From NCBI GenBank assembly GCA_934148875.1, contig CAKPDJ010000002.1, positions 1,297-65,296 of the forward strand: a stretch of DNA of 64,000 bases, given 5' to 3'. Positions 5,892 to 22,756 of the stretch are shown here, in pieces; positions within the stretch are counted from its first letter, which is position 1; every line of letters starts with the position of its first letter. A program made the position numbers and the translations under genes. The notes under the pieces were generated by a model. The model had not been told where the DNA came from. It did not search any database and saw only the letters and a list, made by a program, of their open reading frames with translations. The DNA comes from an uncultured Bacilli bacterium (lineage in GTDB: Bacteria; Bacillota_I; Bacilli_A; RF39; UBA660).

Positions 5892-6341
5892 ATGGCAGTT
5901 GTAGCAAAACTAGAAAATGGTTTAAGAAAACTAAAAATGGCCCAATTAAGTGATGATGGTTCATATGGTGATATTTTCACTGTTGCAGACATGACACAAA
6001 TTACAGCAGAAACTAGTGAGGGTGAAACAAAATTAGCAGCTGGTAATGCTGTTATTTATTCAAAAAAGAGCAAAGGATCTACGACAGGTACTGTTGGATT
6101 TTACTCAACTGATGAAGATACAGAAGCTAAAATATTTGGTTATAAGAAAAATGAAGCAGGAAACATTTTATATGGAATGACTGATAACAAACCATTTGTT
6201 GCAATTATAGCAGAATTTACAGCAGTTAATCCTGCAACTGGTAATGAAGAAAATGGATATTTAATATTCCCTAAATGTGCTTTAGGAGAAATTTCTCAGG
6301 ACATTAGCACTAAGGATGCAGACGGTAGACTAGTTGCCGCT
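5892..6341 (+). CDS. Major tail protein, exon 1
   Basis: SD TAAGGAGG. 150 aa of a phi13/TP901-like tail tube N-terminal part (MAVVAKLENGLRKLKMAQLSDDGSYGD...). The ORF stops at 6342-6344 although the C-terminal part of the protein lies downstream. Confidence 0.75.
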
Positions 6342-6622
6342 TAAATCAGAAATGATTTAATGAAAATCGGTGAAAAAACTGGAAGGCTAAGTAAATTATT
6401 GAAATAAATTCTTTGGTATGTTTTAATGTAATAATTTATATGCTAATCAGAGGTGAAGGCTAGGTTTAAAAACTTAGTCAGCCGCAACGCATACAGATTG
6501 AACCTAGAAATAGAATATAATATCTGCAAGAGGCACCGATATCTTAGCAAGTAAAGTTGAAGATAAAAAGATATGCTGAACTTATAGAAAACTATAAGAA
6601 CTATGGGATAAAAAGCCTATAG
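6342..6622 (+). ncRNA. Group-I-like intron without an ORF, interrupting the major tail protein gene (boundaries +/-1 nt)
   Basis: There is no ORF in 6345-6622. It follows a U and ends in G. Helices: 6385-6392/6472-6479 interleaved with 6460-6466/6501-6507 (P3/P7-type pseudoknot), 6392-6400/6430-6438, a GAAA-loop hairpin at 6341-6360, and hairpins at 6581-6598 and 6601-6622. Confidence 0.55.
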
Positions 6623-6790: not shown

Positions 6791-7390
6791 ATGCTAATTT
6801 GTGATGATAATATATTGATAATAACAATTAATAATATAAAAATAGAAGTGAAAGTTACTTTTAATGTTTTAAGAAATCTATATAACTTCTTACAAGATGA
6901 TATAAGTAGAGAATTAGATGTAAGCTCTCCGTTTGATTTATTAGAAAAATTAAATGAAGATAACAAATATAGAGCTGCTTTATTATACTGTATGGCTAAT
7001 GGTAAAATTCCTTATTACGAAATAAAAGAACATTTAAAGGAACTTCCAGAAATTTATTTTAAGTTAATTGAAACATCAGTATTAAACAGCTTAATTTACA
7101 TAGATAAAAATGAAGAAAAACACGAAGGCAAAGAAGAATCACAAGATTTTGAAGAATATTTTAATTTTTTATACTGTTCAGCAATAACAGTATTACATTT
7201 CACAAAAGAACAATTTTTTGAAACCACTCCTAGAGAATTAAAAGCATTATTAAATGCATATAAATTAAATCAGAAGAATATTCTTTTAACTTCATATATA
7301 GAAATAATGAAATCTTTAAATAAGCCTACTACTAAAAAAGAAGAAGTAATAAAAGCTCAAGATGCCAATGACTTTTTTAATTTAATATAG
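6791..7390 (+). CDS. Tail assembly chaperone (Gp15/G-T-like, single ORF)
   Basis: SD TGGAGGG. 199 aa between the tail tube and tape measure genes. I saw no obvious slippery site. Confidence 0.55.
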   Translation: MLICDDNILIITINNIKIEVKVTFNVLRNLYNFLQDDISRELDVSSPFDLLEKLNEDNKYRAALLYCMANGKIPYYEIKEHLKELPEIYFKLIETSVLNSLIYIDKNEEKHEGKEESQDFEEYFNFLYCSAITVLHFTKEQFFETTPRELKALLNAYKLNQKNILLTSYIEIMKSLNKPTTKKEEVIKAQDANDFFNLI

Positions 7391-7444: not shown

Positions 7445-7783
7445 ATGAAACTTCTAAAAAGATGCTTATTAATAATAAGCTTATTACTCAATCTATCACT
7501 AATATATATTTATTTTGACACATATAATGAATTAAATGGGAAAATAAATGAATATGAAGTAGCAGTAAAATATTTGCAAAATAATAATAGGCGAGAATGG
7601 AATATAACAGAAGAAAAAAAGAAAGAAATTCTTATGTATTACATGTCAATAAGAGAATTAGATCTAGTTGAAGCTCAATATTTAATAGATAGTTATAATT
7701 TTTTATATCAATATGAAATAAGTTTAGATGATAATTTAATAATTCAAGGGGAACTATATACTCCTATATATTGGAACTCATAA
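7445..7783 (+). CDS. Small membrane-anchored protein (moron-like insert in the tail module)
   Basis: SD TAAAGGAGAA. N-terminal TM or signal anchor MKLLKRCLLIISLLLNLSLIYIYF. Has its own promoter-like element and terminator. Confidence 0.6.
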   Translation: MKLLKRCLLIISLLLNLSLIYIYFDTYNELNGKINEYEVAVKYLQNNNRREWNITEEKKKEILMYYMSIRELDLVEAQYLIDSYNFLYQYEISLDDNLIIQGELYTPIYWNS

Positions 7784-7816: not shown

Positions 7817-10800
7817 ATGAGTGATTCTCAAATTAAAATTGAATATTTATTAAATTCATCTGAGTTTAATAAAAATATGGCCAGCATGAAGAAAAATATG
7901 CAGTTATGCAATGAAGAAGTAAAAAATTCAGCTAAAGAAATGAATACATATGGTTCCAATATTCAAACTTTGACTTCAAGGCAAAAAGCTATTCAACAAG
8001 CTATGGAACAAAGTAAAAAAATAATGGCTGAATACAATTCTAATTTAGAAAAAAATAAAAAAGCTTTAGAAGGGAATAAGCAATCTTTAGAAGATTTATC
8101 TAAAGCTAAGAAGCAAGCTAATAATGAATATAAAAATGCTGTAAAGATGTATGGTGAAGAATCAGAAGAAGCTTTAAAATTAAAAGAAGCTTTAGATGAA
8201 GTATCAGATGAATATGCAAATATGAAATCTAGAGTAAAAGGTAATGAAGATACTATTGTAAGTAATACAGCTCAATTAGAAAAACAAAGAGGTGTTTTAA
8301 TTGATTTAGAAGGACAGTTAAAAGCTACAAATAAAGCCTTAGAAGAACAATCTAATAAATTCATATTAGCTAGTAAAAGATTTAGTGAATGGGGGAAAAA
8401 CCTAGAAAAAATAGGTGGAAGTCTTAAAAATTTAGGAGAAGATGTACAAAAAGCTGGTGCGATAATTGTAACTGCAAGTGCAGGCTTAGCAACTTTGGCT
8501 ATGAGTGCAGAATCAGGTTTTGCAAAAGTAAACACTTTAGCAAAAGATTCTGGAGAAAGTTTAAAAAACTTTAAAAAAGATGTTTATGATTTATCAGATA
8601 ATACAGGACAATCAGTTGAAGATTTAACAGATGCTTTATACAATGCTGTAAGTGCTGGAGTAGATTATTCTCAATCAGTTGAATTTATGGATCAAGTTAA
8701 TAAAGTTGCTACTGGTGGATTTGGTGAAATAGCAGATGCATCTAGTGCATTAACTAGTATAATGAATATTTATGGTAAAACAGTAAAAGACACAGGAGAA
8801 ATATCTGATAAGCTGTTTGTTACACAAGAAAAAGGTGTATTAACAGTAGGAGAATTAAGTTCAGTGTTAGGTGAATCTGCTTCTAGTGCTAAAGCTTATA
8901 ATGTAGATTTAGATAACTTACTTAGTGGATATGTATCACTTACTAAAGCAGGTATTAATGTAAATCAATCAAATACCAAACTTAGAGCTATGTTCGAAGA
9001 ATTAGGTGATACTGGTTCAAATGTAGGTAAAATCCTTCAAGAAAAAACAGGTAAATCATTTACTCAATTAATGGAAGATGGTAATTCTTTAGCAGATGTA
9101 CTAAGTATTATAACTGATAGCGTTAATGGATCAAAAGATGATTTTAATGCTTTGTGGAGTAGTAGTGAAGCTGCAGGTGCTGGATTTGTAATTGCTAGTG
9201 AAGGTGGAAAAGTATTTAAAGATGCACTAAAAGGCATGGGAGAAAGTGCTGGCAAATGTAATGGTGCTTTTGAAGAGGTTGCAAATACTAGTGAATTTAA
9301 ATTTAAGAAAAGTATAAATGAAGTTAAAAATAGTGCTTCTAAATTAGGAGAATCTTTATTACCGGTTTTAGATGAAGTTTCTAAAGGTATTAGTAATGTT
9401 GCTAAATATATTTCCAAATTAAATCCTGAGACAGTTGTTGCAGTTGCAAAATTTGGAGCACTTGCTTTAGTGTTCGGAACTGCCATGAAAGCTACTGGTT
9501 CACTTGTAGAAGGTTTAGGAAAAGGTGCACAAGCATTATCAGGATTATTTAAAATTGCTGCAGATACTAAGTCATTTGGAAGTTTTTCAAAAGCTTTAGC
9601 TGAAAGTGATACTGCTATTGGTGGTTTAGTTAAATCTGCTGGTGGATTATCTGAAGTGTTTGGTGGATTTACTTTAACAGGTGGATTAATAGGGGGAGCA
9701 ATAGCTGGTGTAGCCGCGTTAGGAGTAGCTTTTTATAATAATCAAAAAGAAATAGAAGAATCAGAAGCTAAGCTAGCTGAAATGGCTGATTGTTATGATG
9801 ATTTTACAGGAAGAATACGAACTAACGAAAATATATGGACAGAGATATTTGGTAAAGAATACAATATAAAATTTGGAGATGACTATAAACAAGCATTAGC
9901 TAATACAGAAGCAGATGTTGAAGCATGGGTAGAAAACCTAAGAAGTATGCAGGACGATATAAATGCCCTTTTAAATGATACAGAGAAGTCTGACGAAACT
10001 AAACAAAAAGAATTAGAACAGATGGTTCAAATAGTTCCTGAAAGCAACAATAAAGAAGAACATAAGCTACAATTCAAGAGCGGTTTAGAAGAAGCGGGGA
10101 TAACAGGGGAATCACAAGAAAAATATTTGCAACTTTGGTCTGAAGCATATGATAATGCACAACAAGTAGTAGATGGCGGCGAAAAGAAAATTGCAGAAAT
10201 AATTAGAAATAACCTAGGCGAAGATGGTAATATTACCGAAGAAGGTATGAAACAAATAGAGGAAGTAAGAAAAGATGTCCAAGATGAAATGGCACAAGTT
10301 CAATCTAATGATTTTGATACTATGTTGGCTATGACAGAAAGCCATATTGCACAAGAAGAAGCAATATATAAAGGTGCAGAAAAAGGCTCAGTTGAAGCAA
10401 TTAGAAATAAATATAAAACTATGAATGACGAAAGAATAAAAGAATTAGAAAATGAAAAAAATTTTATAGATGAACGTGCAGGATTAAGCGAACAAGAGAA
10501 ACAAGCACTTAAAGATAATATCAATAATCAAATAAATAATATTAATGCTATAGAACAAGCACAGATGGCAAGTCTTAATCGTAGGGCTATGTATGATCAA
10601 GAATATGCAAAACAAAATGGGTTAGCTGTTCAGCAAATTAATGATAATATGTGGACGGTTATAGATACTAATACTGGAATTGAAACATCATTCTTTGACA
10701 CAGAAGCGGCCATGCAAGAATATGCTAATAATATGGGGCTACAAACTTCTTATGTTTCCGATGAATTTGGTAATATGCATATGGTTATTCAAGATGCAGG

Positions 10801-11632
10801 TGGTGGAATAATGGGTATGTTAGATAGTTCAGCTACATCATTTGGTTTCTTTGGTAATGAAGCTTGGGCCGCAATGCAACAAGTAATAGATCAAGCAGGT
10901 GTAACCCAAGGAACTGCAGAACAGAAATTTGCTGCAATATGTGCAGCTATAGATAATGGTACATTAAAAGCAGAAGATTTTGGCTTTACAAGTTCAGAAG
11001 AATTTAAAGCAGCAGCAAAAGAAATGGTTAACGCAGGTGGCAGTGCTGATGATTTAAAAGGAAAAATAAACAACCTACCTAAAAATACAAATGTAAAAGT
11101 AGAAACTAAAATAAAAGGCGAAAGTGATTTAGATAATTTGATTACTAAATTAGGAAGCTTTGCAGGAAAGGTGTTTACAGCTACAGCTAAAGTTGTTTCA
11201 AAAGGTGTTGATGTAGTAACAGGAGTTTTAGGTAAAAAAGAAACTGGTGGTACTATAAACGAAAGTGGTGTATATAACATTAACGAAGCAGGTACAGAAT
11301 TAGTAGATCCTTTTGGGGCATCAACAACTTCAAATTATTCACTAGCTTCTGCTGTAAGAGGAGAATATGCATACCTAGAACAAGGAACTAAAGTTACTAA
11401 CGCTTTAATGACTACACAAAAAATGAACGATATGGTAAATACGAGAGTTGATCAAAGGTTTTTAAATATAGATAAAAGATTAGATAGACTTTGCACTGTA
11501 TTAGAAAGAGCAGGTATAAATACTGGTTCTAATATAAACGTGACAATGAATAATCCTAACTTTACAGATCAAAACTCACAAAAGAAAAAGTTAAATGAAA
11601 TGGTAACGCTTATAAAGGGGGTTAAGAGATAA
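7817..11632 (+). CDS. Tape measure protein
   Basis: 1271 aa, SD AAAGGAGGG. Long coiled-coil N-terminus, a Gly/Ala-rich TM-like central segment (GGFTLTGGLIGGAIAGVAALGVAF), and the canonical position. Confidence 0.9.
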   Translation: MSDSQIKIEYLLNSSEFNKNMASMKKNMQLCNEEVKNSAKEMNTYGSNIQTLTSRQKAIQQAMEQSKKIMAEYNSNLEKNKKALEGNKQSLEDLSKAKKQANNEYKNAVKMYGEESEEALKLKEALDEVSDEYANMKSRVKGNEDTIVSNTAQLEKQRGVLIDLEGQLKATNKALEEQSNKFILASKRFSEWGKNLEKIGGSLKNLGEDVQKAGAIIVTASAGLATLAMSAESGFAKVNTLAKDSGESLKNFKKDVYDLSDNTGQSVEDLTDALYNAVSAGVDYSQSVEFMDQVNKVATGGFGEIADASSALTSIMNIYGKTVKDTGEISDKLFVTQEKGVLTVGELSSVLGESASSAKAYNVDLDNLLSGYVSLTKAGINVNQSNTKLRAMFEELGDTGSNVGKILQEKTGKSFTQLMEDGNSLADVLSIITDSVNGSKDDFNALWSSSEAAGAGFVIASEGGKVFKDALKGMGESAGKCNGAFEEVANTSEFKFKKSINEVKNSASKLGESLLPVLDEVSKGISNVAKYISKLNPETVVAVAKFGALALVFGTAMKATGSLVEGLGKGAQALSGLFKIAADTKSFGSFSKALAESDTAIGGLVKSAGGLSEVFGGFTLTGGLIGGAIAGVAALGVAFYNNQKEIEESEAKLAEMADCYDDFTGRIRTNENIWTEIFGKEYNIKFGDDYKQALANTEADVEAWVENLRSMQDDINALLNDTEKSDETKQKELEQMVQIVPESNNKEEHKLQFKSGLEEAGITGESQEKYLQLWSEAYDNAQQVVDGGEKKIAEIIRNNLGEDGNITEEGMKQIEEVRKDVQDEMAQVQSNDFDTMLAMTESHIAQEEAIYKGAEKGSVEAIRNKYKTMNDERIKELENEKNFIDERAGLSEQEKQALKDNINNQINNINAIEQAQMASLNRRAMYDQEYAKQNGLAVQQINDNMWTVIDTNTGIETSFFDTEAAMQEYANNMGLQTSYVSDEFGNMHMVIQDAGGGIMGMLDSSATSFGFFGNEAWAAMQQVIDQAGVTQGTAEQKFAAICAAIDNGTLKAEDFGFTSSEEFKAAAKEMVNAGGSADDLKGKINNLPKNTNVKVETKIKGESDLDNLITKLGSFAGKVFTATAKVVSKGVDVVTGVLGKKETGGTINESGVYNINEAGTELVDPFGASTTSNYSLASAVRGEYAYLEQGTKVTNALMTTQKMNDMVNTRVDQRFLNIDKRLDRLCTVLERAGINTGSNINVTMNNPNFTDQNSQKKKLNEMVTLIKGVKR

Positions 11633-12435
11633 TGATAGATTGCACTTATATAGAGTTAAATGGTTTAATATTACAACCATCAAGAGACTATGTTTCTAGA
11701 TTAGATGGAATAATGAATTTTCAAAAGAATATAAGCGAGTCTGAATTATTTTATGATGGCTCCTTTTATGGTAGTTCAAAAGTTACTTCTAGGGACCTTA
11801 CTTTAAGTGTAATAATAAAACATCAATTTAATGTAAATGAAAATAAAGCTGAAAAGCAATTAAATTTTATATTAAAAGAAGAAAACATTAAATTAAGATT
11901 TAAATTAGAAAATGATGATAATTTTTATGAGTGCATAGTAAATTGTACATCTAAAGCTACAAATATTGATGAAATTACATGTACATTACATTTAAGTAAT
12001 CCTAATATATATAAATCACAAATTACAACTGAATTAGAAAAAATAATGCAAGGTGGTTTTTATTTTACTCCAGATGGATTTACTATAAGTGGAAGTGGAT
12101 TTGAATTTAATGAAACGCTAATAGGTAATATAGCAGAAATACTAAATCCTAGTACTACTATATATCCTGCTTTTAATATAAAAGGAGATACAGATTATAT
12201 TAATATATCTAACTTAACTACTGGAGAAGTTTTAAAAATTAATTGTAACATTTCATCAGAATATACCTTATTTATTGACTGTAATCCATCTTCAAGAAAG
12301 ATTAGGTACAATAATAAATCTTATATGAGATATAAGTCCGGAAATTATATAAGTTTAGTAAATGGCTCTAATATAATAAGAGTAGATTATTCCGGATCAT
12401 GTACAGTTGAAATATCATATAAGGAAGTGATTTAA
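11632..12435 (+). CDS. Distal tail protein (Dit-like)
   Basis: 267 aa. The start overlaps the tape-measure stop (TAATG). Called by position. Confidence 0.55.
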   Translation: MIDCTYIELNGLILQPSRDYVSRLDGIMNFQKNISESELFYDGSFYGSSKVTSRDLTLSVIIKHQFNVNENKAEKQLNFILKEENIKLRFKLENDDNFYECIVNCTSKATNIDEITCTLHLSNPNIYKSQITTELEKIMQGGFYFTPDGFTISGSGFEFNETLIGNIAEILNPSTTIYPAFNIKGDTDYINISNLTTGEVLKINCNISSEYTLFIDCNPSSRKIRYNNKSYMRYKSGNYISLVNGSNIIRVDYSGSCTVEISYKEVI

Positions 12436-13541
12436 TGTATTACTTAAAATTATATGATAGAAATAAAGTGTTAAAAGATAATTGTGAAATATATTTATTT
12501 TCTGATCTTACTTATACTAAAACATTAAATGGTACTGGTAATTTAAGCTTTAATACCCCAATTAAGTATATAAAAGAAAATGAAATTAATTTCCTACCTG
12601 GGGATTGTATAGAATTGTATTTATCAGAGAATAATTCTGAAGAATGTATATGGTGGGGTGTTGTAGTTAATCCTTCTAATACAGGACTGAATCAAATGAG
12701 TATTGTATGCGAGGGATATTTTTCATGCCTTAAAAACCGTATGCAAAAGCATTTATTTGACTTTGCAATATCTAGTAATAATATGAATTACTTAGAAGAA
12801 ACCTACACAAATGTAGGTCACGGAGAATTAATTCTAAGTCTAATAGGTACACAAAATTATTATGATAATACAGGTGTAACTCAAGGAGTTAATAAAGATT
12901 ACTCCGAAATAAAAACAACTCGAGTTATTAAATGGGACGATAAATTAGATGAAAAAATAAATGAATTTATAGAAGATGGTTGTTTATATTTTAATATAGA
13001 TCAAAATCGTAAAATGAACATATATTCTGAATATGGAGAAGATAAATCGGAGTTCTATATAGTACATGATGGTAATTTAATAGATTGTAGTCAAGCTATA
13101 ATAGATTATTCTCAAATAATTAATCAAGTATATGTTTTGAATCAATTTACTGAAGAGTTAGAAGACGGCTCGAGCGTAGATAGAAGCGTTTATTACATAG
13201 CAGAAGATAAAGAAAGTATAAAATTATTTGGATTAAGACAAGAAGTACTTAGTGTTAACGATATAAGATTAGTAGAAACAGCTAAAAAATACGCTGAACA
13301 AGAACTTAAAAAAGTATCTTCTCCTATTGTAAACATAGAATTAGAAGCTAATATAACTGATGATTTAGATATATTCCATATAGAACCGGGCGATTATATA
13401 GGAATAGATTCGGAATTGTTAAATTTAAAAGGAAAATTTAGAGTAATGGAATATACAGTAGATATTTCTAATAATACAGTAAAAATTAATTTAGGTAATT
13501 GCATATTCAGAAAAAATAATATTGTAAGTTATAGATATTAG
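12435..13541 (+). CDS. Tail-associated protein (Tal / tail endopeptidase-family-like)
   Basis: 368 aa, TAATG overlap with Dit. Called by position. Confidence 0.5.
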   Translation: MYYLKLYDRNKVLKDNCEIYLFSDLTYTKTLNGTGNLSFNTPIKYIKENEINFLPGDCIELYLSENNSEECIWWGVVVNPSNTGLNQMSIVCEGYFSCLKNRMQKHLFDFAISSNNMNYLEETYTNVGHGELILSLIGTQNYYDNTGVTQGVNKDYSEIKTTRVIKWDDKLDEKINEFIEDGCLYFNIDQNRKMNIYSEYGEDKSEFYIVHDGNLIDCSQAIIDYSQIINQVYVLNQFTEELEDGSSVDRSVYYIAEDKESIKLFGLRQEVLSVNDIRLVETAKKYAEQELKKVSSPIVNIELEANITDDLDIFHIEPGDYIGIDSELLNLKGKFRVMEYTVDISNNTVKINLGNCIFRKNNIVSYRY

Positions 13542-13555
13542 AAAGGAGTAGGAAA

Positions 13556-14443
13556 ATGGCAGAAAAAATTTATCCTGTTGCATCGAGCAATCATGTTTAT
13601 TATACATCTGATATAAAAAATTTAAACAAAACATTAATTAAGGATAAAACTTTAATATTATCAACATCTTTGGAAGTTACAGCAAAAACAAGCCCAAATA
13701 TGACAGTTTCAATATCCTCCGGTTCTGCTTTTAATGATGGAATGTTTTATCAGAATAGTGCTACTGTTAGCTTAACTATAGACAGTAATACTGGCTCACT
13801 CCCAAGAAAGGATGCTATTTGTATAGAATTTAATGGTGCAAACAGTAAACTTGTTGTAATAAAAGGAAATCCCGCAACAAGTCCAGTAATCTCAAGTACA
13901 GCTACAGATAGTAACCATATTTTATTAGCAGAAGTATTAGTAGGTGTAGGTGCAACAAGTATACAAACATCTAATATAACAGATAAAAGAAATTATTCCG
14001 GACAATATACGCTAGAAAGTTTAGATAAATCTATCCACACATTAGAAGATAAAGTTAAAAAATTAGAAGATGGCAAAATGGTAACGTATTACAATCACAC
14101 ACAGAACGATAACTATATTTTAAATACAAACTTAATGGAATTTAAAGAAACAACTATGAAAATATCTAGCATGTATTTTTATTTAAGTCCTAATTATATA
14201 GCGTCAACTAAAATTAATGGGAAAAATTATAGTGCTGTTACTTTGCCTTACTTTTATAGCATAGGTACTACTTATTCTGTTAATGTAAATTTATCAGCAA
14301 ACCAAGATGCAATTCTATCTGGTAAATTTAGTGGAGATATTTTGTTTACATTACCTAATTCTAAAGGATTTAACATTTTTATTCCTAACAACACAAATGA
14401 CGCTTACGATTGTACATTATTTATTAATGTAGTAGGTAAATAA
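13556..14443 (+). CDS. Baseplate/fibre protein
   Basis: SD GAAAGGAG. The N-terminal pattern ...LPRKDAICIEF...NHILLAEVLVGVGATSIQTSNITDKR is typical of fibre shoulder domains, followed by a short coiled coil. Confidence 0.45.
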   Translation: MAEKIYPVASSNHVYYTSDIKNLNKTLIKDKTLILSTSLEVTAKTSPNMTVSISSGSAFNDGMFYQNSATVSLTIDSNTGSLPRKDAICIEFNGANSKLVVIKGNPATSPVISSTATDSNHILLAEVLVGVGATSIQTSNITDKRNYSGQYTLESLDKSIHTLEDKVKKLEDGKMVTYYNHTQNDNYILNTNLMEFKETTMKISSMYFYLSPNYIASTKINGKNYSAVTLPYFYSIGTTYSVNVNLSANQDAILSGKFSGDILFTLPNSKGFNIFIPNNTNDAYDCTLFINVVGK

Positions 14444-14452
14444 GGTGATAAA

Positions 14453-14668
14453 ATGATTTTAAAATTTTATAAAAATGGTTATAACCCAGATAAAAAGTAT
14501 ATTTTATATAAAAAAATAGATAATGCTAGCGGAACTATAGAATACTACAAAGAAATTAAAAAAACAAAAGAAGAATTATATGTAGAAGAGCTACAAAATG
14601 TTAAAGAACAACTAAATGCTGCTCAAGAAGCAATAGACTTTTTAATTGAGATAGGAGGTGATGTATGA
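14453..14668 (+). CDS. Hypothetical protein (71 aa)
   Basis: SD AAGGTGA, with a coiled-coil C-terminus. Lies in the tail fibre block. Confidence 0.5.
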   Translation: MILKFYKNGYNPDKKYILYKKIDNASGTIEYYKEIKKTKEELYVEELQNVKEQLNAAQEAIDFLIEIGGDV

Positions 14669-14823
14669 TGGCAGGATATTTGGCTATGAGAATTGAAGGC
14701 GGACATTTAGATTATAGTATAGTCTACAGAAAAAACTATAGACAATTTAAAGAAACTGTAGATGATATTTTAATTTTAGATGGATATCAAAATTTAATTC
14801 AACCAGATCCAAATGAAATATAA
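14665..14823 (+). CDS. Hypothetical small protein (52 aa; not in the ORF track)
   Basis: ATGATG start overlapping the upstream TGA, SD GGAGGTGA. Sequence MMAGYLAMRIEGGHLDYSIVYRKNY... Confidence 0.45.
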   Translation: MMAGYLAMRIEGGHLDYSIVYRKNYRQFKETVDDILILDGYQNLIQPDPNEI

Positions 14824-14839
14824 GAAAGGAGAATAATTT

Positions 14840-15940
14840 ATGAATCCTATTACTAAAAAACAAATAATAATGAAATGCTTAGCAGATGGGGATACTGCAA
14901 AATTGCCTAAACCTAGTTCTAAAATAGAAACCTATCTTTATATATGGTGTAAAGGTAGTGGAAATATACCAACACCAGCAAATAAAGAAGAGATGTATTT
15001 TGCATACCTAGCAAGTCAAGCGGGTGGTACAGGCTTTAGTGGTACACTGCCCAAACCTACAAGCAGAATAGAAACTTTTTTACACGCTTTAGCTTTAGGA
15101 AACACACCTAGCTTAAAAGCCAATAGTAGATATGAATTATTTTTAAAAGGCATTGCAACCGGTGGAAGTTCTGTTATGCCTATTCCACAAACAATAGAAG
15201 AATATTATCTTAAATATTTAGCAGAAAATATGCAAGATGATAACACTTATGGAGAAATAGTATTAGATAAAACTGCATTAACAATAAATGAAAATGCTAC
15301 AGGTACTATTCAAGTTAAATTAAGTACAGCACCTAGTGTTAATCAAAATATTTCAGTATCCCTATCAAACGGAAATGCAAGTATTGATAAAACTGCATTA
15401 ACATTTACACCATCAAACTATAATGCTTATCAAACTATTACAGTAACAGGAACTCATTTAGCAGGAAACTTTAATAATAACCAATGTGTATTAACATTTA
15501 AATCTAAGAAAACAGTAGCAACTAAAACTTGTACAGTAACAATAAATAACATAGATGCAGATACTACTCCTTATATGTATTATGGTAGATTAAGTTTCTC
15601 AGATGTAGGAAGTAGAGTAATTCAGTTCAATGAAATAACAGAAGCTATGATTCTAAAAGGCGTTGCTGACGGCAAATTAACCAAGTCTACACCTCATACA
15701 CTTGGAAAGACATCTCTAGGATTAGCATCAACAACAGCAGAATCAGATTATCAAATAGTGATTGTGCCAACTGCTAATAATTACGCAGTAACTAAGGATA
15801 ATGGTTTTGGTGGAAAAACAGTATTTGACGAAGAAACAGCAGGTGCTAATGGCATAGATATTACTATTAATACAGTACCATGCAAGCTATATGGAGAAAT
15901 TCTTATAGCACAAGGTGAAACATTTATTTATGTAGATTAG
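14840..15940 (+). CDS. Tail fibre / receptor-binding accessory protein with internal repeats and an Ig-like module
   Basis: SD GAAAGGAG. Repeated motifs LPKPSSKIETYLYIW / LPKPTSRIETFLHAL / NSRYELFLKGIA. The module YGEIVLDKTALTI...NYNAYQTITVTG recurs in 15953..18838. Confidence 0.5.
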   Translation: MNPITKKQIIMKCLADGDTAKLPKPSSKIETYLYIWCKGSGNIPTPANKEEMYFAYLASQAGGTGFSGTLPKPTSRIETFLHALALGNTPSLKANSRYELFLKGIATGGSSVMPIPQTIEEYYLKYLAENMQDDNTYGEIVLDKTALTINENATGTIQVKLSTAPSVNQNISVSLSNGNASIDKTALTFTPSNYNAYQTITVTGTHLAGNFNNNQCVLTFKSKKTVATKTCTVTINNIDADTTPYMYYGRLSFSDVGSRVIQFNEITEAMILKGVADGKLTKSTPHTLGKTSLGLASTTAESDYQIVIVPTANNYAVTKDNGFGGKTVFDEETAGANGIDITINTVPCKLYGEILIAQGETFIYVD

Positions 15941-15952
15941 GAGGTATAATAA

Positions 15953-18838
15953 ATGGCAACAGATTTTACTTATAATAATAAAACAATTAATATTAGTGGG
16001 CCTGCAAAACCATCAGGTAAAAATCAACCTTTAGATCCAAGAACCGAGGTTAAATTATATGCAGATATAAAAAGCATACCATCTCCTTACGTAGGTATGA
16101 TTGTTACTGTATTGGAAGATGAAACTAACTCTAATAAAATGACAGATTACAAAGTACTTTCATTAAAAGCTAATGCATCAGGGATAGCTAATTCAGTTGT
16201 AGACCAAGTGCAAAGATATGTAGATTATTTAGGTGCTGGGAGTGTATCTCAAGAGGATATAAATACAGCTGTTAATAATTATCTTACAGAAAATCCAGTA
16301 CAAAGTGGGGCTACAGCGGAACAAGCAGCTCAAATAGAAGCTAACAGAATAGCTATAGGTGATACTAATAGTGGATTAATAAAAGAAGTTAATGATATTA
16401 AAAATATTGAATTGCAAAATTTAAATACAGCTATTAATACTTTAGAAACTTTAGTTGGATTAGACGAAACAGTAGGTGATAAAAACGGATTACCTAAAGG
16501 TGATGCAAATATTATTGCTAGTATTAATAGAATTGATAATAAGACAGGTGGGCAAGTTGTATATAAAGCACCCGCTGTTAATCTATTTAATTATACTACA
16601 ATACAACAAGATACAGTAAATGGAGTAACGGGTTATTATTCTGATTATATTAATTATGATGATAGTAAAAAATATGTAATAAATATGCCACAGCTGACTT
16701 ATAAATATTTTGATTCCAATAAAAATTATGTTAGTAGTCAACAATTAAATACACATAATAGTGGTAGTTATTCAATAATACCTACTATATCCGATAATAC
16801 TGTAAAATATATTAGACTTTACTTTGGTACATCTATGCCTAATTGGGTTAACAATAGCCATTTTGTAGAAGAAGGTACTGTACCATTGCTTGATTATTCA
16901 AAAACTTATACTACTAAAAATAGATGGTTTGGGAAAAAATTATTAGTTTTAGGAGATGGCATTTCAACAGAAAGAGCTGGTTTATCAGATATAACATATG
17001 CTACACAATTAGGAATAGAATATGGTTTTAGTTCAGTAACTAATTTATCAATTAGCGAAAAAACAATTTTATGGCACATAGAAAATCTAAATAAATATTC
17101 AGATGATTATGACTTGGTTATAATAATGTGTGGAACTAATGATCATGGAAATAATACTACTATAGGTGATATCAATTCTACTGATAATACTACTATAAGT
17201 GGTAGAGTTGATATATTGATAAATGCATTAATAGAAAAAAAAATGGAAGCGCTAATTGTATTTTTAACTCCTATAAAAAGAGTTGGTACTATAGGTTCAG
17301 AGGATGAAGCTCTTAATACTACTGATGGATATTATACTAAATCAGGCGTCACTACAAAAGAAGTTGGAGAAGCAATAAAAAATAAATGTAAACAATATTC
17401 GATACCATGTATAGATTTATATGATTCAATAGAACCAAAATTAGCATCAATAAGAAATAAATATTTCAATAGTCCTAACGACGGAACACACCCAAGCACA
17501 TTAGGGCATGCTAAATATATTTCACCTAAAGTTGTAAGTGAAATAGGAAGATTAGCTCCTTTCCCACCTGTATCTATCAACACATCAACAGAAGTATATG
17601 GAAATATAGTTACTAATCCTTCTTCTTTAAGTTTAAATAGTGGAGAAAGTGGAAGTTTTGCTGTAAAACTCGATAAAGCACCTACAAATGAACAAACTAT
17701 TTCTATTGAATCAACTAATTCCAATGTTACATTATCAGCTAGAGAGTTAAGATTTACTTCTGATAATTATAATAATGAACAGACTATTACCTTTACAGTG
17801 CCATCTTCAGTAACTAATAACTTCACAATATCTTTAACTAACCCTAACGTAGTAAATAAATCAGTTGAAGTTATTGTAACAAATGGTGAAACAACAAACG
17901 TATTGGTTGATAGTGTAAGTCTTAACAAAGAGAACATCACATTAACAGTTGGTAATACAGAACAATTAATACCAACTATAAGTCCTTCTAACGCAACAAA
18001 TAAAGAAGTAAACTGGAGTTGTAATAATGATAATTGTACAGTTGTTGATGGTTTAGTAACAGCTATTAAAGAAGGTTCAAGTGTAATTACTGTAACAACA
18101 GTTGATGGTAATAAAACAGCAAACTGTAATGTTACAGTTTCAGGAGAAAGTTCTAAAGATATTATTGAAGACGGTTTGGTATTTAGACTAGATGGTAAAA
18201 ATACAGACTCCAATGCATATTTAACAGACACAGTAAATGGGGTGACATGTAATATTTTAAATACTGGTTATACCAAAACTAATAATGGGGTAGTTATTCC
18301 CAAAGATTCAACTGCTTGTATAGAAATACCAGCTTCAGAAACCAATTACGGTATAACTAACGAAATGACTTTAGAAGTTCAAACAATTTCACCTGGAAAG
18401 CTATCTGTTTTTGGAAAAGATGCGAATTCGAGTATTGCTGCAGATAATGTTTTTAAAGTATATATCAATTACATGAATACTTCTGATGTAAGTAGTTATA
18501 AAAAGAATCAAAATTACGATGTAGAAAATGCCAATAAGTTTATGACTGGTTTACACCGAATTTCGGTAACAATTTCTACTGATGGTAATGTGCTAACCTA
18601 TGTAGATGGAGAGCTATATACTGGATTTAGCGATACTATTATAACAGATTATAAAGATCTATCCACACTATTCGCATCAAAAAATTATTCTTTAAAAGAT
18701 ACCATGTATAGTGGAAAATCTGTAGACGAATCTACTTTTGTTAGTATGACATTATATAATAGGGCTTTAAGTGCTGATGAAATAAAGCAAAATTATGATT
18801 CAGACCTATTCCTAGAAAACATACTGGTGTTACCCTGA
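15953..18838 (+). CDS. Tail fibre with SGNH/GDSL-like esterase, Ig-like (Big_2-type) and LamG/ConA-like domains
   Basis: SD TTAGGAGG. Motifs LGDGIS, MCGTNDH and DGTHPS (SGNH blocks). A Big_2-like repeat (VDSVSLNKENITLTVGNTEQL...). A LamG-like C-terminus ending LYNRALSADEIKQNYD. Ends at CCC TGA (18833-18838). Confidence 0.75.
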   Translation: MATDFTYNNKTINISGPAKPSGKNQPLDPRTEVKLYADIKSIPSPYVGMIVTVLEDETNSNKMTDYKVLSLKANASGIANSVVDQVQRYVDYLGAGSVSQEDINTAVNNYLTENPVQSGATAEQAAQIEANRIAIGDTNSGLIKEVNDIKNIELQNLNTAINTLETLVGLDETVGDKNGLPKGDANIIASINRIDNKTGGQVVYKAPAVNLFNYTTIQQDTVNGVTGYYSDYINYDDSKKYVINMPQLTYKYFDSNKNYVSSQQLNTHNSGSYSIIPTISDNTVKYIRLYFGTSMPNWVNNSHFVEEGTVPLLDYSKTYTTKNRWFGKKLLVLGDGISTERAGLSDITYATQLGIEYGFSSVTNLSISEKTILWHIENLNKYSDDYDLVIIMCGTNDHGNNTTIGDINSTDNTTISGRVDILINALIEKKMEALIVFLTPIKRVGTIGSEDEALNTTDGYYTKSGVTTKEVGEAIKNKCKQYSIPCIDLYDSIEPKLASIRNKYFNSPNDGTHPSTLGHAKYISPKVVSEIGRLAPFPPVSINTSTEVYGNIVTNPSSLSLNSGESGSFAVKLDKAPTNEQTISIESTNSNVTLSARELRFTSDNYNNEQTITFTVPSSVTNNFTISLTNPNVVNKSVEVIVTNGETTNVLVDSVSLNKENITLTVGNTEQLIPTISPSNATNKEVNWSCNNDNCTVVDGLVTAIKEGSSVITVTTVDGNKTANCNVTVSGESSKDIIEDGLVFRLDGKNTDSNAYLTDTVNGVTCNILNTGYTKTNNGVVIPKDSTACIEIPASETNYGITNEMTLEVQTISPGKLSVFGKDANSSIAADNVFKVYINYMNTSDVSSYKKNQNYDVENANKFMTGLHRISVTISTDGNVLTYVDGELYTGFSDTIITDYKDLSTLFASKNYSLKDTMYSGKSVDESTFVSMTLYNRALSADEIKQNYDSDLFLENILVLP

Positions 18839-20789
18839 AGCAGTCAATTTAAATATTAATGAAAGTAGAAATATACATGTAACCACTTCCCCTAGCAATA
18901 TAAAAAATGAGTGTAATTTTATTTTTAATAGTGGAAACGAAGGTTTTGTATCAGTGAATGACGGTGTGTTATTAGGAAAATCGGCTGGTACAACTATAGT
19001 AAATATTATCGCTTCATATAAAGATAGAACCATAAATAAATTCATTAATGTTACCGTGGGGAATGTGTCTGAAGGAAGTTCTGGTGATATAGTACCATCT
19101 AGGACTCCGACTGGCATTGTTATAAACAACCCTATTGAAGAAATTAATGTGGGTGAATATTATCCTTTAATGGCAACTGCTATACCTTATGATATCATGG
19201 ATGAAAATTTAGTAAAATTCTCATCATCAAACCCAGAAGTTTGTTCTATAGATTATGGTGTTATAGTAGCCCATAAAGAAGGAAATGCCGAAATAACCGT
19301 TAGCACACTAGACAATAGCATATCAACTTCTTTCAATTTAAAAATAAATCCTAACTTAGATAGGATTGACGATAAAATAACAAAAATTAAAAATTTAACA
19401 TTAGCTGAAAGTGGATTGGTTGAAAATGATAACTCTTATTTAACTGCAAAAAATAATACTATTAATCTCCAAAATATAATAAATGAAGCAATAAATAACA
19501 ACTATCAAAAATTAGTATTACCCAACGGAAAGTTTTATATAACTCCAGAAGTTGAATTAGTTCCAGAATCTGAAAGGCAATTATTGTCAGGGTGGTCAAC
19601 CCCTTCTTATTCTATAACTATAAACAAACCTGGAGATGATGTATTTGTATTAGATTTTAATGGAAGTGAATTTGAAATAATACAATCATATTGGACATTA
19701 TGGAAATATGGACGTGAGAATGAAAATTCTAATAAAAATGGATATAGAATGTTCACTATAACAGAAAATTCATCAAATGTAGAATTGAGAAACGGTACTA
19801 TAAACGGGGAAAGATATACTGCGACTTATCCAGAGTCAGAATTTGATGCTTCAGAAATGTGTATGTCATTAAATTTAAATGGTAATAATAATGGGATATA
19901 TAATATGTCGTTCGATAACTCTCCCGGATTTAATATTGGATTCTCTCAAACCAGAAAAATAATTCATAATGGTGTACCATACACTAATTTTGAAGCTGGT
20001 GGATTTGATGACAATGGTAATAAAATAGAATTAATTGAAACAGGAACATGGAGAACCATAGATTTAATGGAAATTAATGAGATAAGCAACAGTTATGCAT
20101 TTGGATTTATATTCGGATATCAGGGATTCTCATATTTAAGAAGTAGATTATATTCTATATATTTCTATGATAAAAATAGAAATTTTATAGAATGTCAAAA
20201 GTATAATCTTCAATATTATAAATATACTATGCCTAAAAATACTAAATATTATGGTATAGAAATATATCAAGAAAATGCTCCTACTAGTGGATATGGTGAT
20301 TATAATAATGCTGTTGCTAATTTATATGAACCTATTGGTGAAAAATGCTATGCTAGAAATTGTACATTTAAAAACAACTATTCTAGTGCAATTGCATTAA
20401 CAACACGAAATACTATATTAGAAAATAATATACTTGAAAATAATGGTCAAAGAGCACCTCTTAGTGGATTTGTATTTGAAGATGGATGGGAAAATATGAT
20501 TGGAAATATTATAATAAATAATAAGTTCAACAATAATGGTCAAGGATTATGTACATGTGCTGGCAATAGTTTTGTTATATATAATAATATTTTTGAAAAT
20601 GATTTAGTCAATATATATAGTAGAACCCAACATACAAGAATGTATAAAAATATATTTGTTGATACTACTGTTAATTTTTCTACTCAAGGAGATTCAGTAT
20701 TCGCCAAAAATAGTATTAGTGGGAGAGGTTCTATAACTTATGGTAAACATCATGAAAATGCTAATTATAAAGTTAGGGTTATAGAATAA
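18837..20789 (+). CDS. Big_2 x2 + right-handed beta-helix (pectate-lyase-like depolymerase) protein; probably the +1-frame continuation of 15953..18838
   Basis: The frame is open from 18816. A complete Big_2 domain starts at 18837 (EAVNLNINESRNIHVTTSPSN...). The track start (GTG 18954) has no SD and would cut that domain. Beta-helix repeats include NCTFKNNYSSAIAL...NNILENNGQ...IIINNKFNNNGQG. Confidence 0.65.
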   Translation, partial: EAVNLNINESRNIHVTTSPSNIKNECNFIFNSGNEGFVSVNDGVLLGKSAGTTIVNIIASYKDRTINKFINVTVGNVSEGSSGDIVPSRTPTGIVINNPIEEINVGEYYPLMATAIPYDIMDENLVKFSSSNPEVCSIDYGVIVAHKEGNAEITVSTLDNSISTSFNLKINPNLDRIDDKITKIKNLTLAESGLVENDNSYLTAKNNTINLQNIINEAINNNYQKLVLPNGKFYITPEVELVPESERQLLSGWSTPSYSITINKPGDDVFVLDFNGSEFEIIQSYWTLWKYGRENENSNKNGYRMFTITENSSNVELRNGTINGERYTATYPESEFDASEMCMSLNLNGNNNGIYNMSFDNSPGFNIGFSQTRKIIHNGVPYTNFEAGGFDDNGNKIELIETGTWRTIDLMEINEISNSYAFGFIFGYQGFSYLRSRLYSIYFYDKNRNFIECQKYNLQYYKYTMPKNTKYYGIEIYQENAPTSGYGDYNNAVANLYEPIGEKCYARNCTFKNNYSSAIALTTRNTILENNILENNGQRAPLSGFVFEDGWENMIGNIIINNKFNNNGQGLCTCAGNSFVIYNNIFENDLVNIYSRTQHTRMYKNIFVDTTVNFSTQGDSVFAKNSISGRGSITYGKHHENANYKVRVIE

Positions 20790-20796
20790 AAAATAA

Positions 20797-20831
20797 ATAG
20801 AGAAACATAAAATAGTGTTTCTCTATTTTTA
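20797..20831 (+). terminator. Rho-independent terminator ending the structural operon
   Basis: ATAGAGAAACA-TAAAATAG-TGTTTCTCTAT followed by T5. Confidence 0.85.
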
Positions 20832-21153
20832 TAATAAATCTATATAAAATATATTTTTTGTATCTTTAATCTATATCAATATGCAACCTATTGAAAACTA
20901 TTAAGAATATGATTTAAATGAAGAAAAAAGAATGGAAGAAATAATGAATCTAACATATAACTAAATTAGTAGGAATTGAATAATATTTTTAGATTTGGAA
21001 AATATAACTATATTTCAAAGTTAGGATGTGGTATAGTGGAAGACTTATACAAAAAACAGGCAGAAACTAATAAAACTAATTGGATAAAACAAATAATAAA
21101 ATAGTTATGATTATATTAAAAGGAGATGGGGCAAATATGAGAGGAATGATAAT

Positions 21154-21450
21154 ATGGATCAAGAACTTTTAAAATTTGCCATTAGTCAAGGGCTGTTCGC
21201 AGCTCTTTTTGTATGGCTATTAATAGACACTAGAAAAGAATCTAAAGCTAGAGAAGAATCTCTTAATAAAACAATAGAAGAAAATAAAAAAAGTGCTACA
21301 GATAGAGAAGATAAACTAAACAAAGCGTTATCTGAAAATCAAATTATATTAGTTGAAAATCAACGAATTATTAGTGAACTAACAGATAAATTTAATTTAG
21401 TAGAAGATATAAAATTAGATATTAAGGAGTTAAAAGATAAACTCTTGTAA
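21154..21450 (+). CDS. BhlA/UviB-family holin-like protein
   Basis: N-terminus MDQELLKFAISQGLFAALFVWLLIDTRKESKAREE matches the BhlA/UviB pattern (a TM segment, then a charged coiled coil). Confidence 0.7.
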   Translation: MDQELLKFAISQGLFAALFVWLLIDTRKESKAREESLNKTIEENKKSATDREDKLNKALSENQIILVENQRIISELTDKFNLVEDIKLDIKELKDKLL

Positions 21451-21451
21451 A

Positions 21452-21486
21452 AGAGCAGGCTAGTAGATGCTGGCCTGCTCTTTTTT
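21452..21486 (+). terminator. Rho-independent terminator
   Basis: AGAGCAGGC-N12-GCCTGCTCT followed by a T-run. Confidence 0.85.
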
Positions 21487-21560
21487 CTGTTACCAAATTA
21501 GTTTAGCAATTGATACTTCTATTATAACTCTAAAAAAAATTTTTTCAACATTTTTTGAAC

Positions 21561-21593
21561 TTTTGGAACAAAAAAGTGTAAAAAGTAATACTA
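21561..21593 (+). promoter_or_regulatory. Promoter-like element copy (GGAACA-N17-ATACTA)
   Basis: TTTTGGAACAAAAAAGTGTAAAAAGTAATACTA aligns with the GGTACT-N16/17-CATATA family. It lies ~30 nt upstream of the SD of 21626. Confidence 0.45.
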
Positions 21594-21625
21594 TATACTA
21601 TAAAAGAAAAAAGGAGACAAAGAAA

Positions 21626-21772
21626 ATGGAAGTTTTAATTATTAAAGACAATAAAAAGGTTATGGATTTAAATACTAAGAGGTTAGGATCTTTATTAAAG
21701 ATATTTTTAACAACAATAACAGTAGATACAAGTATAATTGCATTAGTAAAATTAATAACAATACTTAATTAG
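21626..21772 (+). CDS. Small protein with hydrophobic C-terminus (48 aa)
   Basis: The internal ATG of track ORF 21467..21772 has SD AAAGGAGAC. The upstream part of the track ORF spans a terminator and promoter. Sequence MEVLIIKDNKK...FLTTITVDTSIIALVKLITILN. Confidence 0.5.
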   Translation: MEVLIIKDNKKVMDLNTKRLGSLLKIFLTTITVDTSIIALVKLITILN

Positions 21773-21773
21773 C

Positions 21774-21800
21774 TGGAGGGCATTTGCCTTCCATTTTTTT
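21774..21800 (+). terminator. Rho-independent terminator
   Basis: TGGAGGGC-ATTT-GCCTTCCA (one G-U pair) followed by T7. Confidence 0.7.
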
Positions 21801-21835
21801 GTACATGACAAAAAGTAAAAAAGATTATAAAATAT

Positions 21836-21876
21836 TTTTGGTACTTTTGGTACTAAATTAAACACTTATACATAGA
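21836..21876 (+). promoter_or_regulatory. Promoter-like element copy (tandem GGTACT, N16, CATAGA)
   Basis: TTTTGGTACTTTTGGTACT(21849)-N16-CATAGA, ~30 nt upstream of the parM-like SD. Confidence 0.55.
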
Positions 21877-21907
21877 ATATAGTAAAAAATCAAAAAGGAG
21901 AAACAGT

Positions 21908-22756
21908 ATGGAAAATTTATCTATCGAAATTGGCAATAGAAATATAAAAACCAATAAAGGCATTGTATTTCCAAGCAGATATACAATGTTTAATCAAATA
22001 GGAACAGAGATAATACAATACAAAGGAATAAATTACTTTATAGGTAATGGAGAATACGATATAGAATTAGAAAAGTCTAAAAAAGATTTTATGCCTTTAT
22101 TATTAACAGCAATAGCAAAGAGCACAACAAGTGAAGAAATAAACTTAGTATTAGGAACACCTATTAATCAGAAAAATTCAAAGGAGGATTTTATTAAGAA
22201 ACTTAAAGACAAAGAATTTTTCTTTAACTATATTAATAAACAAGGTAAAAAATCTACTAGGATTATAAGAATAAATAAAGTTGAAGTAATTCTAGAAGGA
22301 TTAGGCTCTATAAAATATTTACCCAAAGAAGCAGGTAAAAGATCTATACTAATAGATATCGGTGGATGGACAACTAATGTGTTGTATATAAGCAATAATA
22401 AAATAGAAGATGCTTTTACGGTTCCAAAGGGAATCTTAAGTTTCTATCAGCTTGTAAAAGATAGAAAAGATACTGAAGATAAATGTTCTTATAAACTAGA
22501 AGAAATAGAAGATGCTATTAAGAATGGATATATTACAGATTGGGAAAATGAAAAAATAACAATCTTTAATAGCATTATAAAAGAAATAAAAAATAGAAGG
22601 CCAATAAAGTTATATGATAAATACTTTACTGGTGGAGGATCTACAGACTTTAAAGAGTATATAAGAAAAATTAATTGTGAAATATTAGATAATAATCTAT
22701 TTACTAATGTAAATGGGAATCTAATAATAGCAGAAGAAAAATGGAGGAGAGAATAA
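21908..22756 (+). CDS. parM: Actin-like plasmid segregation ATPase (ParM/Alp family)
   Basis: Actin-fold motifs IEIGNRNIK (phosphate 1), LIDIGGWTTNV (phosphate 2) and YFTGGGS (adenosine). The layout LVLGTP...VEVILEGLGS parallels R1 ParM. Confidence 0.8.
   Translation: MENLSIEIGNRNIKTNKGIVFPSRYTMFNQIGTEIIQYKGINYFIGNGEYDIELEKSKKDFMPLLLTAIAKSTTSEEINLVLGTPINQKNSKEDFIKKLKDKEFFFNYINKQGKKSTRIIRINKVEVILEGLGSIKYLPKEAGKRSILIDIGGWTTNVLYISNNKIEDAFTVPKGILSFYQLVKDRKDTEDKCSYKLEEIEDAIKNGYITDWENEKITIFNSIIKEIKNRRPIKLYDKYFTGGGSTDFKEYIRKINCEILDNNLFTNVNGNLIIAEEKWRRE

Follow-up and report, generated by a model that had tools for sequence, protein, structure and literature searches.

The stretch analysed here, called the window throughout, comprises 64,000 nucleotides of contig CAKPDJ010000002.1 from an uncultured Bacilli bacterium of the RF39 lineage. 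It is phage-like, has a G+C content of 27.5%, and carries nearly all of its genes on the forward strand, in an order that runs from the capsid through the tail tube, tape measure (7817..11632), Dit (11632..12435) and further tail proteins to a tail fibre. The fibre gene is the subject of this analysis: its first open reading frame (ORF1) closes on a proline codon and a stop, CCC TGA, where a second frame in the +1 register (ORF2) is already open and continues for 650 codons. An earlier inspection of the window (the original prediction) had proposed that this arrangement represents either a programmed +1 ribosomal frameshift or a fresh pseudogene break. As set out below, comparison of related loci indicates that a conserved +1 frameshift at the shifty stop CCC_UGA very probably joins ORF1 and the +1 ORF into one fibre gene.

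The locus has the layout of two ORFs that overlap in a 0/+1 relation, the upstream one ending at the candidate shift site itself (Table 1). The 3' end of ORF1 reads AAC ATA CTG GTG TTA CCC TGA, with the TTA codon at 18830-32 and CCC at 18833-35. Rechecking the sequence confirmed the coordinates and reading of this junction as first described, including the opening of the +1 frame at 18816, as well as the position of a GGUG tetramer (18826-29) that ends 3 nt before CCC with the linear spacing of the prfB site. The length expected of the long form, about 1611 residues, also checked out, being the sum of the 961 residues of ORF1 and the 650 codons that follow; the predicted tryptic junction peptide of this fusion is QNYDSDLFLENILVLPEAVNLNINESR. 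The composition of the junction is unusual for this genome: CCC accounts for 3.1% of proline codons, CTG for 1.4% of leucine codons and GTG for 5.4% of valine codons in the window, TGA terminates only 6 of 67 window ORFs, and ORF1 is the sole ORF of at least 60 aa in the window that ends in CCC followed by a stop. Reassignment or readthrough of UGA was considered as an explanation and rejected: frame 0 meets a TAA seven codons past the UGA, and TGA also ends 6 other ORFs of the window.

Table 1. Features of the fibre gene and of the junction between its two reading frames (positions in the window).
Feature	Position	Strand	Basis or remark
ORF1 (frame 0), 961-aa tail-fibre protein	ATG 15953..TGA 18838	+	Pfam domains; PHROG tail fibre and Ig-domain families
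SGNH/GDSL esterase domain	16952..17512 (aa 334-520)	+	Pfam PF13472 Lipase_GDSL_2, E = 4e-11, 44.1 bits against a 32.9-bit cut-off
LamG-like (concanavalin-like) domain, ORF1 C-terminus	18155..18817	+	collinear with the N-terminal part of uninterrupted homologues
Overlap, frames 0 and +1 both open	18816..18838	+	preceded by +1-frame TAG 18813-15
Ig-like (Big_2-type) domain 1, predicted to be encoded across the frame change	18818..19058	+	frame 0 supplies strand A, frame +1 the strands from A' on
GGUG	18826..18829	+	complementary to CACC of the 16S rRNA 3' tail, 3 nt before CCC; possible prfB-like stimulator
Slippery CCC_U (candidate)	18833..18836	+	CCC (18833-35) to CCU (18834-36) re-pairing; the window has one C more than the CCT GAA of relatives
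UGA stop of ORF1, candidate A-site shifty stop	18836..18838	+	next base A
+1-frame ORF (ORF2), 650 codons	GAA 18837 to TAA 20787-89 (18837..20789)	+	remainder of Ig domain 1, Ig domain 2, right-handed beta-helix
GTG called as ORF2 start by ORF callers	18954..18956 (GTG40)	+	only in the window; GTA in L002; inside Ig domain 1
Ig-like domain 2 (Big_2/HL_N-beta)	19113..19349	+	Pfam HL_N-beta E = 5e-7; Big_2 E = 0.008, below cut-off; AlphaFold2 model
Right-handed parallel beta-helix, putative polysaccharide-degrading or -binding head	19437..20786	+	Pfam NosD

Close relatives of the locus were collected from two proteins (P0001 and P0002) encoded on a single Logan contig, L002, and by tracing the ten members of the 90% cluster of P0002 to their contigs. 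Eight loci, namely the window, L002 and L024-L029, share an identical split site, GTGTTACCCTGAA (GTG TTA CCC TGA A). The remaining three, L021-L023, are one sequence found in three ENA assemblies; they read GTG TTA CCT GAA, with two C residues (C2) in place of three (C3), and so form a single ORF, reading ENIQVLPEEVNLNINESR, that encodes ENIQVLPEEVNLN, exactly the product predicted for the frameshift (VLPEEVNLN at the junction). All 11 close loci have 650 codons after the junction. Their ORF2 sequences fall into three clades that lie 6-8% apart at the nucleotide level (L002 with L024; L025-L029; the window with L021-L023), the window and the fused allele differing by 3.3%. The split loci come from different sequencing runs, and the module is joined in them to different fibre N-termini and genome contexts: the upstream fibre parts of the close loci measure 645, 739, 961 and 973-984 residues, and only that of the window contains an SGNH domain.

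That both C2 and C3 versions occur among close relatives would also fit a C-run misread during sequencing or assembly, or a mutational switch that turns the frame on and off in the DNA instead of during translation. Either explanation is highly improbable, as C3 recurs in eight independent assemblies from at least two sequencing projects (C2 occurs in three assemblies of one variant), while the C2 and C3 sequences are 3.3% apart elsewhere and hence do not represent one population. A run of two or three C residues is, moreover, too short for transcriptional slippage or for frequent polymerase slippage. The relatives also confine the frame change to a very short interval. Because L002 and L024 carry an extra +1-frame TAG (in ATAGAG), the overlap is narrowed in these loci to the last 14 nt, G AGG TGT TAC CCT GA, within which the +1 frame offers no start or near-cognate start codon and CCC_U is the only place for a P-site tRNA to re-pair one base forward.

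A close relative in which a C-run shorter by one nucleotide gives an intact ORF is the classic signature of a simple indel, and could mean that the split gene has suffered an inactivating frameshift, with the fibre ending at residue 961 and the distal module decaying as a pseudogene. The original prediction had itself named such a relative as a sign of simple mutation. L021-L023 turn out to be just this, but they do not refute frameshifting, since the split persists across some 6-8% divergence and the +1 frame has remained under selection throughout. Between the window and L002, synonymous divergence (dS) in the +1 frame is 0.245 and nonsynonymous divergence (dN) 0.040, giving a ratio (omega) of 0.16, with 82 synonymous and 61 nonsynonymous changes (p = 2e-22) and no indel; neutral simulation of the same pair leads one to expect a mean of 9.2 stops, with a probability of 0.0002 of encountering none. 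Omega over the 650 codons is 0.16-0.20, and not one of the eight split loci has a stop or a frame-breaking indel. Over codons 74-650, pairwise comparisons among the split loci give values of 0.13-0.20, and counts along the tree give 122 synonymous and 94 nonsynonymous changes (p = 1e-32). Purifying selection on a +1 frame that has acquired no stops excludes a pseudogene for practical purposes, and split loci that stand 6-8% apart are not recent copies; we therefore reject the fresh-break alternative, which retains only the slightest probability.

More distant homologues show how the two parts are arranged when the frame is uninterrupted. Relatives were sought by tblastn, by alignment-based scans of genomes and metagenomes, and by a full HMMER scan of 1.8 billion representatives. 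Megablast and blastn searches of phage records with the region around the site gave no match, and neither two IMG/VR scans nor a single-sequence genome scan returned a relative; the alignment-based scans succeeded, and among the searches of phage records only tblastn found Bacillus phage C30-1, whose 874-aa ORF is collinear with the window from the LamG-like domain through the end of the beta-helix. An alignment-based scan yielded 13 prophage loci, mostly in Bacillaceae genomes (the record of one Bacillaceae-type locus is titled Pseudomonas), of which 12 have complete ORFs of 1050-1137 aa. Three metagenome loci likewise cross the junction as one ORF, and the HMMER scan added at least 11 further proteins with a single alignment stretch over it. 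In total, more than 25 distant homologues hold the LamG-like domain, both Ig-like domains and the beta-helix in one ORF, with no gap at the junction and an invariant proline there. The LamG-like domain and the C-terminal ~625 residues are homologous and collinear at 30-36% identity (C30-1 and the Bacillaceae prophages; L001 and L003-L018), and some of the uninterrupted homologues have a BppU_N anchor.

At the residue level, GISVNP/SNVQL in relatives and VSILP/EVVKL in L011 correspond to NILVLP/EAVNL in the window, the slash marking the junction. The DNA of L011, CTA CCT GAA GTT GTC AAA, aligns with TTA CCC TGA AGC AGT CAA of the window, which contains one extra C. The junction proline of the uninterrupted homologues is encoded by CCT, CCA, CCG or CCC, followed in each case by a sense codon. 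In one of them, L005 (5072-5107; record titled Bacillus sp. V3B), it is CCC followed by TCC, read in frame; the pair CCC_UCC is given in a review as the shift site of the Listeria phage PSA cps gene (PMC5009743). Stand-alone versions of 550-580 aa, consisting of an Ig-like domain and the beta-helix, also occur in Bacillaceae and metagenomes (P0005, P0007-P0009, P0011, P0016). N-terminal IDGG(L/S)F repeats take the place of the LamG-like domain and Ig domain 1 in these proteins, and may be a peptide that docks to another fibre protein.

The junction falls within a folded domain. The original prediction had the first Ig/Big_2 domain start exactly at the junction, but strand A of this domain (NILVL) is encoded upstream, in frame 0, as judged from an AlphaFold2 (AF2) model and from Pfam boundaries in homologues. 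A single-sequence AlphaFold model (pLDDT 39) was discarded in favour of one based on an alignment of 14 homologues (pLDDT 80.6), in which strand A is NILVL in frame 0, Pro39 lies at a kink, and strand A' is AVNL in frame +1, the strands at residues 34-38 and 41-44 flanking Pro39. The best Foldseek match of the Ig model is the LigA tandem Big_2 structure (E = 6e-10). Ig domain 1 of the window has no Pfam match; the homologous residues of L011 (460-526) and L003 (499-563) pass as Big_2 (PF02368), and in both proteins the Pfam domain begins 4-5 residues ahead of the junction proline. In the model, then, the shift site is inside Ig domain 1, and ORF2 taken alone would start with a broken Ig domain because strand A is encoded upstream in frame 0.

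ORF1 as a whole encodes, in order, an N-terminal shaft, the SGNH esterase, a Big_2 domain (aa 652-727; Pfam, E = 2e-10), the LamG-like domain and strand A of the next Ig domain. The short form had been described as an SGNH-LamG protein: the SGNH assignment stands, its PF13472 match clearing the cut-off, while the LamG label is weak, the best match (Pfam Laminin_G_3, E = 5.4e-4) scoring 20.6 bits under a gathering cut-off of 27.6 bits. Of the module added by the +1 frame, described earlier as Big_2 domains and a beta-helix depolymerase, the Ig/Big_2 and beta-helix folds hold up and the depolymerase function is putative. The beta-helix fold is supported by a NosD match (E = 1e-6, 28.8 bits against a 23.6-bit cut-off), by Pfam Beta_helix matches in L011 and L003, and by homologues that bear the name 'right-handed parallel beta-helix repeat-containing protein'. 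For the beta-helix module, neither catalytic residues nor a solved relative by sequence could be found, a PDB sequence search with ORF2 giving no meaningful match.

The SGNH block (window 16560-17640, ORF1 aa ~205-560) is absent from the otherwise homologous fibre of L002 (8023-9960), and N-terminal parts of still other kinds occur in the fibres of L024 and L025-L029; the fibre is, on sequence comparison, a mosaic of exchangeable modules. Similarity between the window and L002 is patchy over 8837-21078: it is 83% in the tape measure, 80% in 14498-16546 and 92.8% in 17927-21008, and none was detectable across Dit/Tal (11437-14498). By this comparison, the block that contains the LamG-like domain, the frameshift site and the beta-helix has a history unlike that of the rest of the tail module.

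If ORF1 and ORF2 were instead to yield two separate proteins, ORF2 would have to be initiated internally, from GTG77 (19065) or from the GTG at 18954, to give a beta-helix protein of ~574-611 aa and leave 18837-19064 untranslated. The stand-alone homologues with one Ig-like domain and a beta-helix (P0005, P0007-P0009, P0011) offer a precedent for such a product, and GTG77 lies at the linker past Ig domain 1. We rejected GTG 18954 as a real start, since it has no Shine-Dalgarno (SD) sequence, as the original prediction had held, is not conserved and falls inside Ig domain 1: only AAGG occurs in the 17 nt upstream, and a codon scan bears out that no ATG, GTG or TTG precedes it in the +1 frame. 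Of the other candidates, GTG15 is found only in L002 and L024, GTG44 is missing in L024 and the L025 clade, and GTG74 is missing in L024, so that GTG77 is the first start common to all split loci. None of the candidates tested (GTG40, 44, 74, 77, 105, ATG112, 121) has an acceptable SD sequence; ORF1 is preceded by AGGAGGT, and of the 67 ORFs in the window with 90 aa or more, 46 are preceded by an SD-like match of at least 5 nt.

Codons 1-76, which precede the first shared start, speak most directly against separate initiation. They are under selection in their own right (19 synonymous and 24 nonsynonymous changes along the tree, omega 0.35, p = 0.0009), are free of stops in 8/8 split loci, and are homologous to Ig domain 1. 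In addition, there is no SD sequence before GTG74 or GTG77, the N-terminal IDGG(L/S)F peptide of the stand-alone homologues is absent from ORF2, and the start codons that are conserved coincide with conserved Val/Met residues of the protein family. On these grounds a two-protein arrangement is very unlikely: independent initiation is unlikely to be the main route to the beta-helix, and a minor product from GTG77 is possible. Gene callers nevertheless place the start of ORF2 at three different internal GTG codons (577, 611 and 636 aa; entries P0169, P0172 and P0002). These annotated starts are probably all wrong, the fibre being systematically split in annotations, and such false starts are misleading when depolymerases and receptor-binding proteins are predicted in phages that infect low-GC Gram-positives.

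The split in eight loci, selection on the +1 frame including its startless part, and the collinear unsplit homologues together support the programmed +1 frameshift that was originally proposed. In the mechanism we envisage, a ribosome would arrive with peptidyl-tRNA-Pro on CCC in the P site and UGA in the A site, where termination dependent on release factor 2 (RF2) would be slow. A fraction of ribosomes would terminate and release the 961-aa short fibre; in the remainder, tRNA-Pro would re-pair on CCU (18834-36), GAA (18837-39) would be decoded, and translation of the 650 codons would produce the 1611-aa fibre, a long form that completes Ig domain 1 and adds the second Ig domain and the beta-helix head. 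The slip itself, its efficiency, its stimulation by GGUG/GAGGUG and any role of the short form in its own right are what we infer from the sequence. A search of the window for tRNA genes found none, and thus no phage tRNA-Pro there.

Several features of the site appear favourable to such a slip, namely the rare CCC codon, the C-terminal proline and the common GAA. C-terminal proline is reported to slow termination (PMC3082878), and GAA, the incoming +1 codon, is the second commonest codon (7.5%). A further candidate is the SD-like element, which reads GGUG in the window, GAGGUG in L002 and L024, and CAGGUG in the L025 clade and L021, and which ends 3 nt before CCC in all loci; a linear spacing of 3 nt is conserved in prfB (bioRxiv 10.1101/2024.09.24.614795). 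The element is built from rare G-ending codons although the residue encoded varies between L, E and Q, and it is absent from the distant homologues. By analogy with prfB, we regard a stimulatory role for it as a reasonable hypothesis.

A number of observations weigh against this interpretation or limit its reach. Taken alone, codons 1-39 show no significant selection (p = 0.17). No RNA structure was found downstream, the folding of 62-102 nt past the site in the window and L002 giving minimum free energy z-scores from -0.15 to +1.8, no improvement on shuffled sequences, and nothing shared between the two, so that any stimulation would be left to the stop context, the C-terminal proline and perhaps GGUG. 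GGUG/AGGUG is also present in the unsplit L021 and thus is not specific to the split state, and, by our reasoning, GGUG would pair with the CACC end of the anti-SD sequence in a register ~2 nt off that of the prfB AGGGGG. The site is common to the eight split loci by descent, so that they amount to one or few evolutionary events, and the direction of the change between C2 and C3 is not rooted: with the distant homologues as outgroup, the agreement of L021-specific sites with it stood at 3 against 5. Most simply, the ancestor of the low-GC clade would have gained one C in what had been CCT GAA, and midpoint rooting favours L021 as a revertant over its having branched off before the insertion. 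Finally, the existence of a fused close relative shows that a short isoform would be dispensable, at least there.

The last of these points bears on a different view of the same slip, in which only the long protein matters, a 'savior indel' having created the shift-prone CCC_UGA by insertion of a C, and the 961-aa product is a by-product. The unsplit L021-L023 and all of the distant homologues make the long form only, and their site differs from the split one by exactly one C. A review describes frameshifting as a translational 'correction' of indels (Atkins 2016, PMC5009743), and the paper on pheL describes shifting at CCC_UGA that can be incidental (PMC3082878). We consider this view possible but would not favour it. 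Three clades on different backbones have retained the split, through recombination and over 6-8% divergence, although the loss of a single C restores the ORF; the split is thus at least well tolerated, not strongly deleterious and possibly advantageous, and the SD-like GGUG is constructed from rare codons.

Should the short form have a use of its own, the frameshift could serve as a stoichiometry device that fixes, for each virion, the ratio between short fibres (esterase and lectin-like) and long ones that carry the added beta-helix head. This ratio would be coupled to the state of the cell through the supply of RF2 and tRNA-Pro, and the coexistence of C3 and C2 alleles would reflect selection for different ratios. 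We put this forward as speculation and think it rather unlikely; if true, it would tie adsorption or host range to the physiology of the producing cell. Whichever purpose the proposed frameshift may have, the fused sibling, at 3.3% divergence, provides a natural matched control for the short isoform and for shift efficiency.

Beyond the fibre, the surroundings of the gene may depart from a simple prophage layout. Just 3' of it (21154-22756) lie a 98-aa ORF akin to bacteriocin production/immunity proteins (phrog_2429) and a ParA-like partition protein (phrog_691), and a lysin homologous to the amidase of L002 is found ~25 kb further on (45927-46913), which may mean that the element is a composite or a phage-plasmid. 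Searches with the capsid protein (MCP) and the lysin pointed to low-GC Firmicutes and no more narrowly. Upstream, the tail tube gene (5892..6344) is followed by a 447-nt stretch with tiny ORFs only and then by two ORFs (6791..7390 and 7445..7783) ahead of the tape measure; neither of these two ORFs matches a PHROG family, and they show no obvious G/GT chaperone layout with a -1 slippery site. In the L025 clade (L025-L029; ~8650 to the locus end), the split fibre is near a 1745-aa ORF with Pfam matches to FAD/NAD-binding oxidoreductases, an unusual tail-gene neighbour, beside a Phage_tail_C protein.

The proposed site belongs to a known class. CCC_UGA has been called 'especially +1 shift-prone' (PMC3082878, PMC5009743, PMC4759559), and CCC was reported to be one of the most slippery codons when the position before the prfB stop was randomised (PMC10885494). 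The same hexanucleotide, where it closes E. coli pheL, is described as giving 15% shifting, within a range of 2-15% for +1 shifts in bacteria, incidentally and with no known use of the product (PMC3082878); here, by contrast, the +1 frame consists of 650 conserved codons. The prfB site itself (AGGGGG-nnn-CUU_UGA_C) resembles ours in that the shifty stop is UGA, 3 nt separate the SD-like element from the slippery codon and no downstream structure is needed. Our site differs in having CCC for CUU, A for C as the next base, a weaker SD-like element that would pair with another part of the anti-SD sequence, and no autoregulatory logic; its efficiency should, by analogy, still depend on RF2. Unlike the Listeria PSA cps site, where downstream RNA structure stimulates shifting, it has no predicted stable hairpin or pseudoknot on its 3' side.

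The closest parallels lie in phage tails, and in the literature consulted on frameshifting in tail-fibre, tailspike or receptor-binding genes we found tail-chaperone and tail-tube cases only. The statement in the original prediction that a structural gene of Listeria phage PSA uses a proline codon followed by UGA is right for its tail gene: a +1 shift at CCC_UGA is described in the major tail protein (tsh) genes of phages PSA, A118 and A500 (Zimmer 2003; Dorscht 2009; PMC5009743, PMC3082878). The sites are identical, CCC is a rare proline codon in the low-GC Gram-positive hosts (5% in Listeria, 3.1% here), and the outcome, predicted in our case, is a C-terminally extended virion structural protein alongside a short form. 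Shifty stops of the form CCC_UAA or CCC_UAG serve gp17.1* of Bacillus phage SPP1, Lactococcus phage Q54 and the MTP-TpeX of the 936-group phage PhiC0139 (PMC3082878, PMC5009743, PMC4759559), where a proline codon and a stop again direct a +1 shift, by which the tail protein of a Firmicutes siphophage gains an extension that is Ig-like or binds carbohydrate. The stop in these cases is UAA or UAG where ours is UGA, and their extensions decorate the tail tube.

The fibre gene departs from these systems in several respects. The tsh product forms the tail tube and gains a single small domain, whereas the protein described here is a distal tail fibre with a 650-aa extension that ends in a beta-helix head; the frame change is placed within an Ig domain, a GGUG tetramer resembling an SD sequence stands 3 nt upstream, and unsplit siblings exist. 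Western-blot or virion evidence is available for SPP1, Q54 and PhiC0139; our case, unlike both groups, is a prediction from sequence comparison. Most probably, then, the mechanism is of a known kind, and what is new is its location in a distal tail-fibre gene with a putative glycan-active head, the placement of the site within a domain, and the natural fused allele. A tail-fibre/receptor-binding gene would thereby join the tail-tube and capsid genes that use CCC-stop +1 recoding and, if this is true, host recognition itself would depend on recoding.

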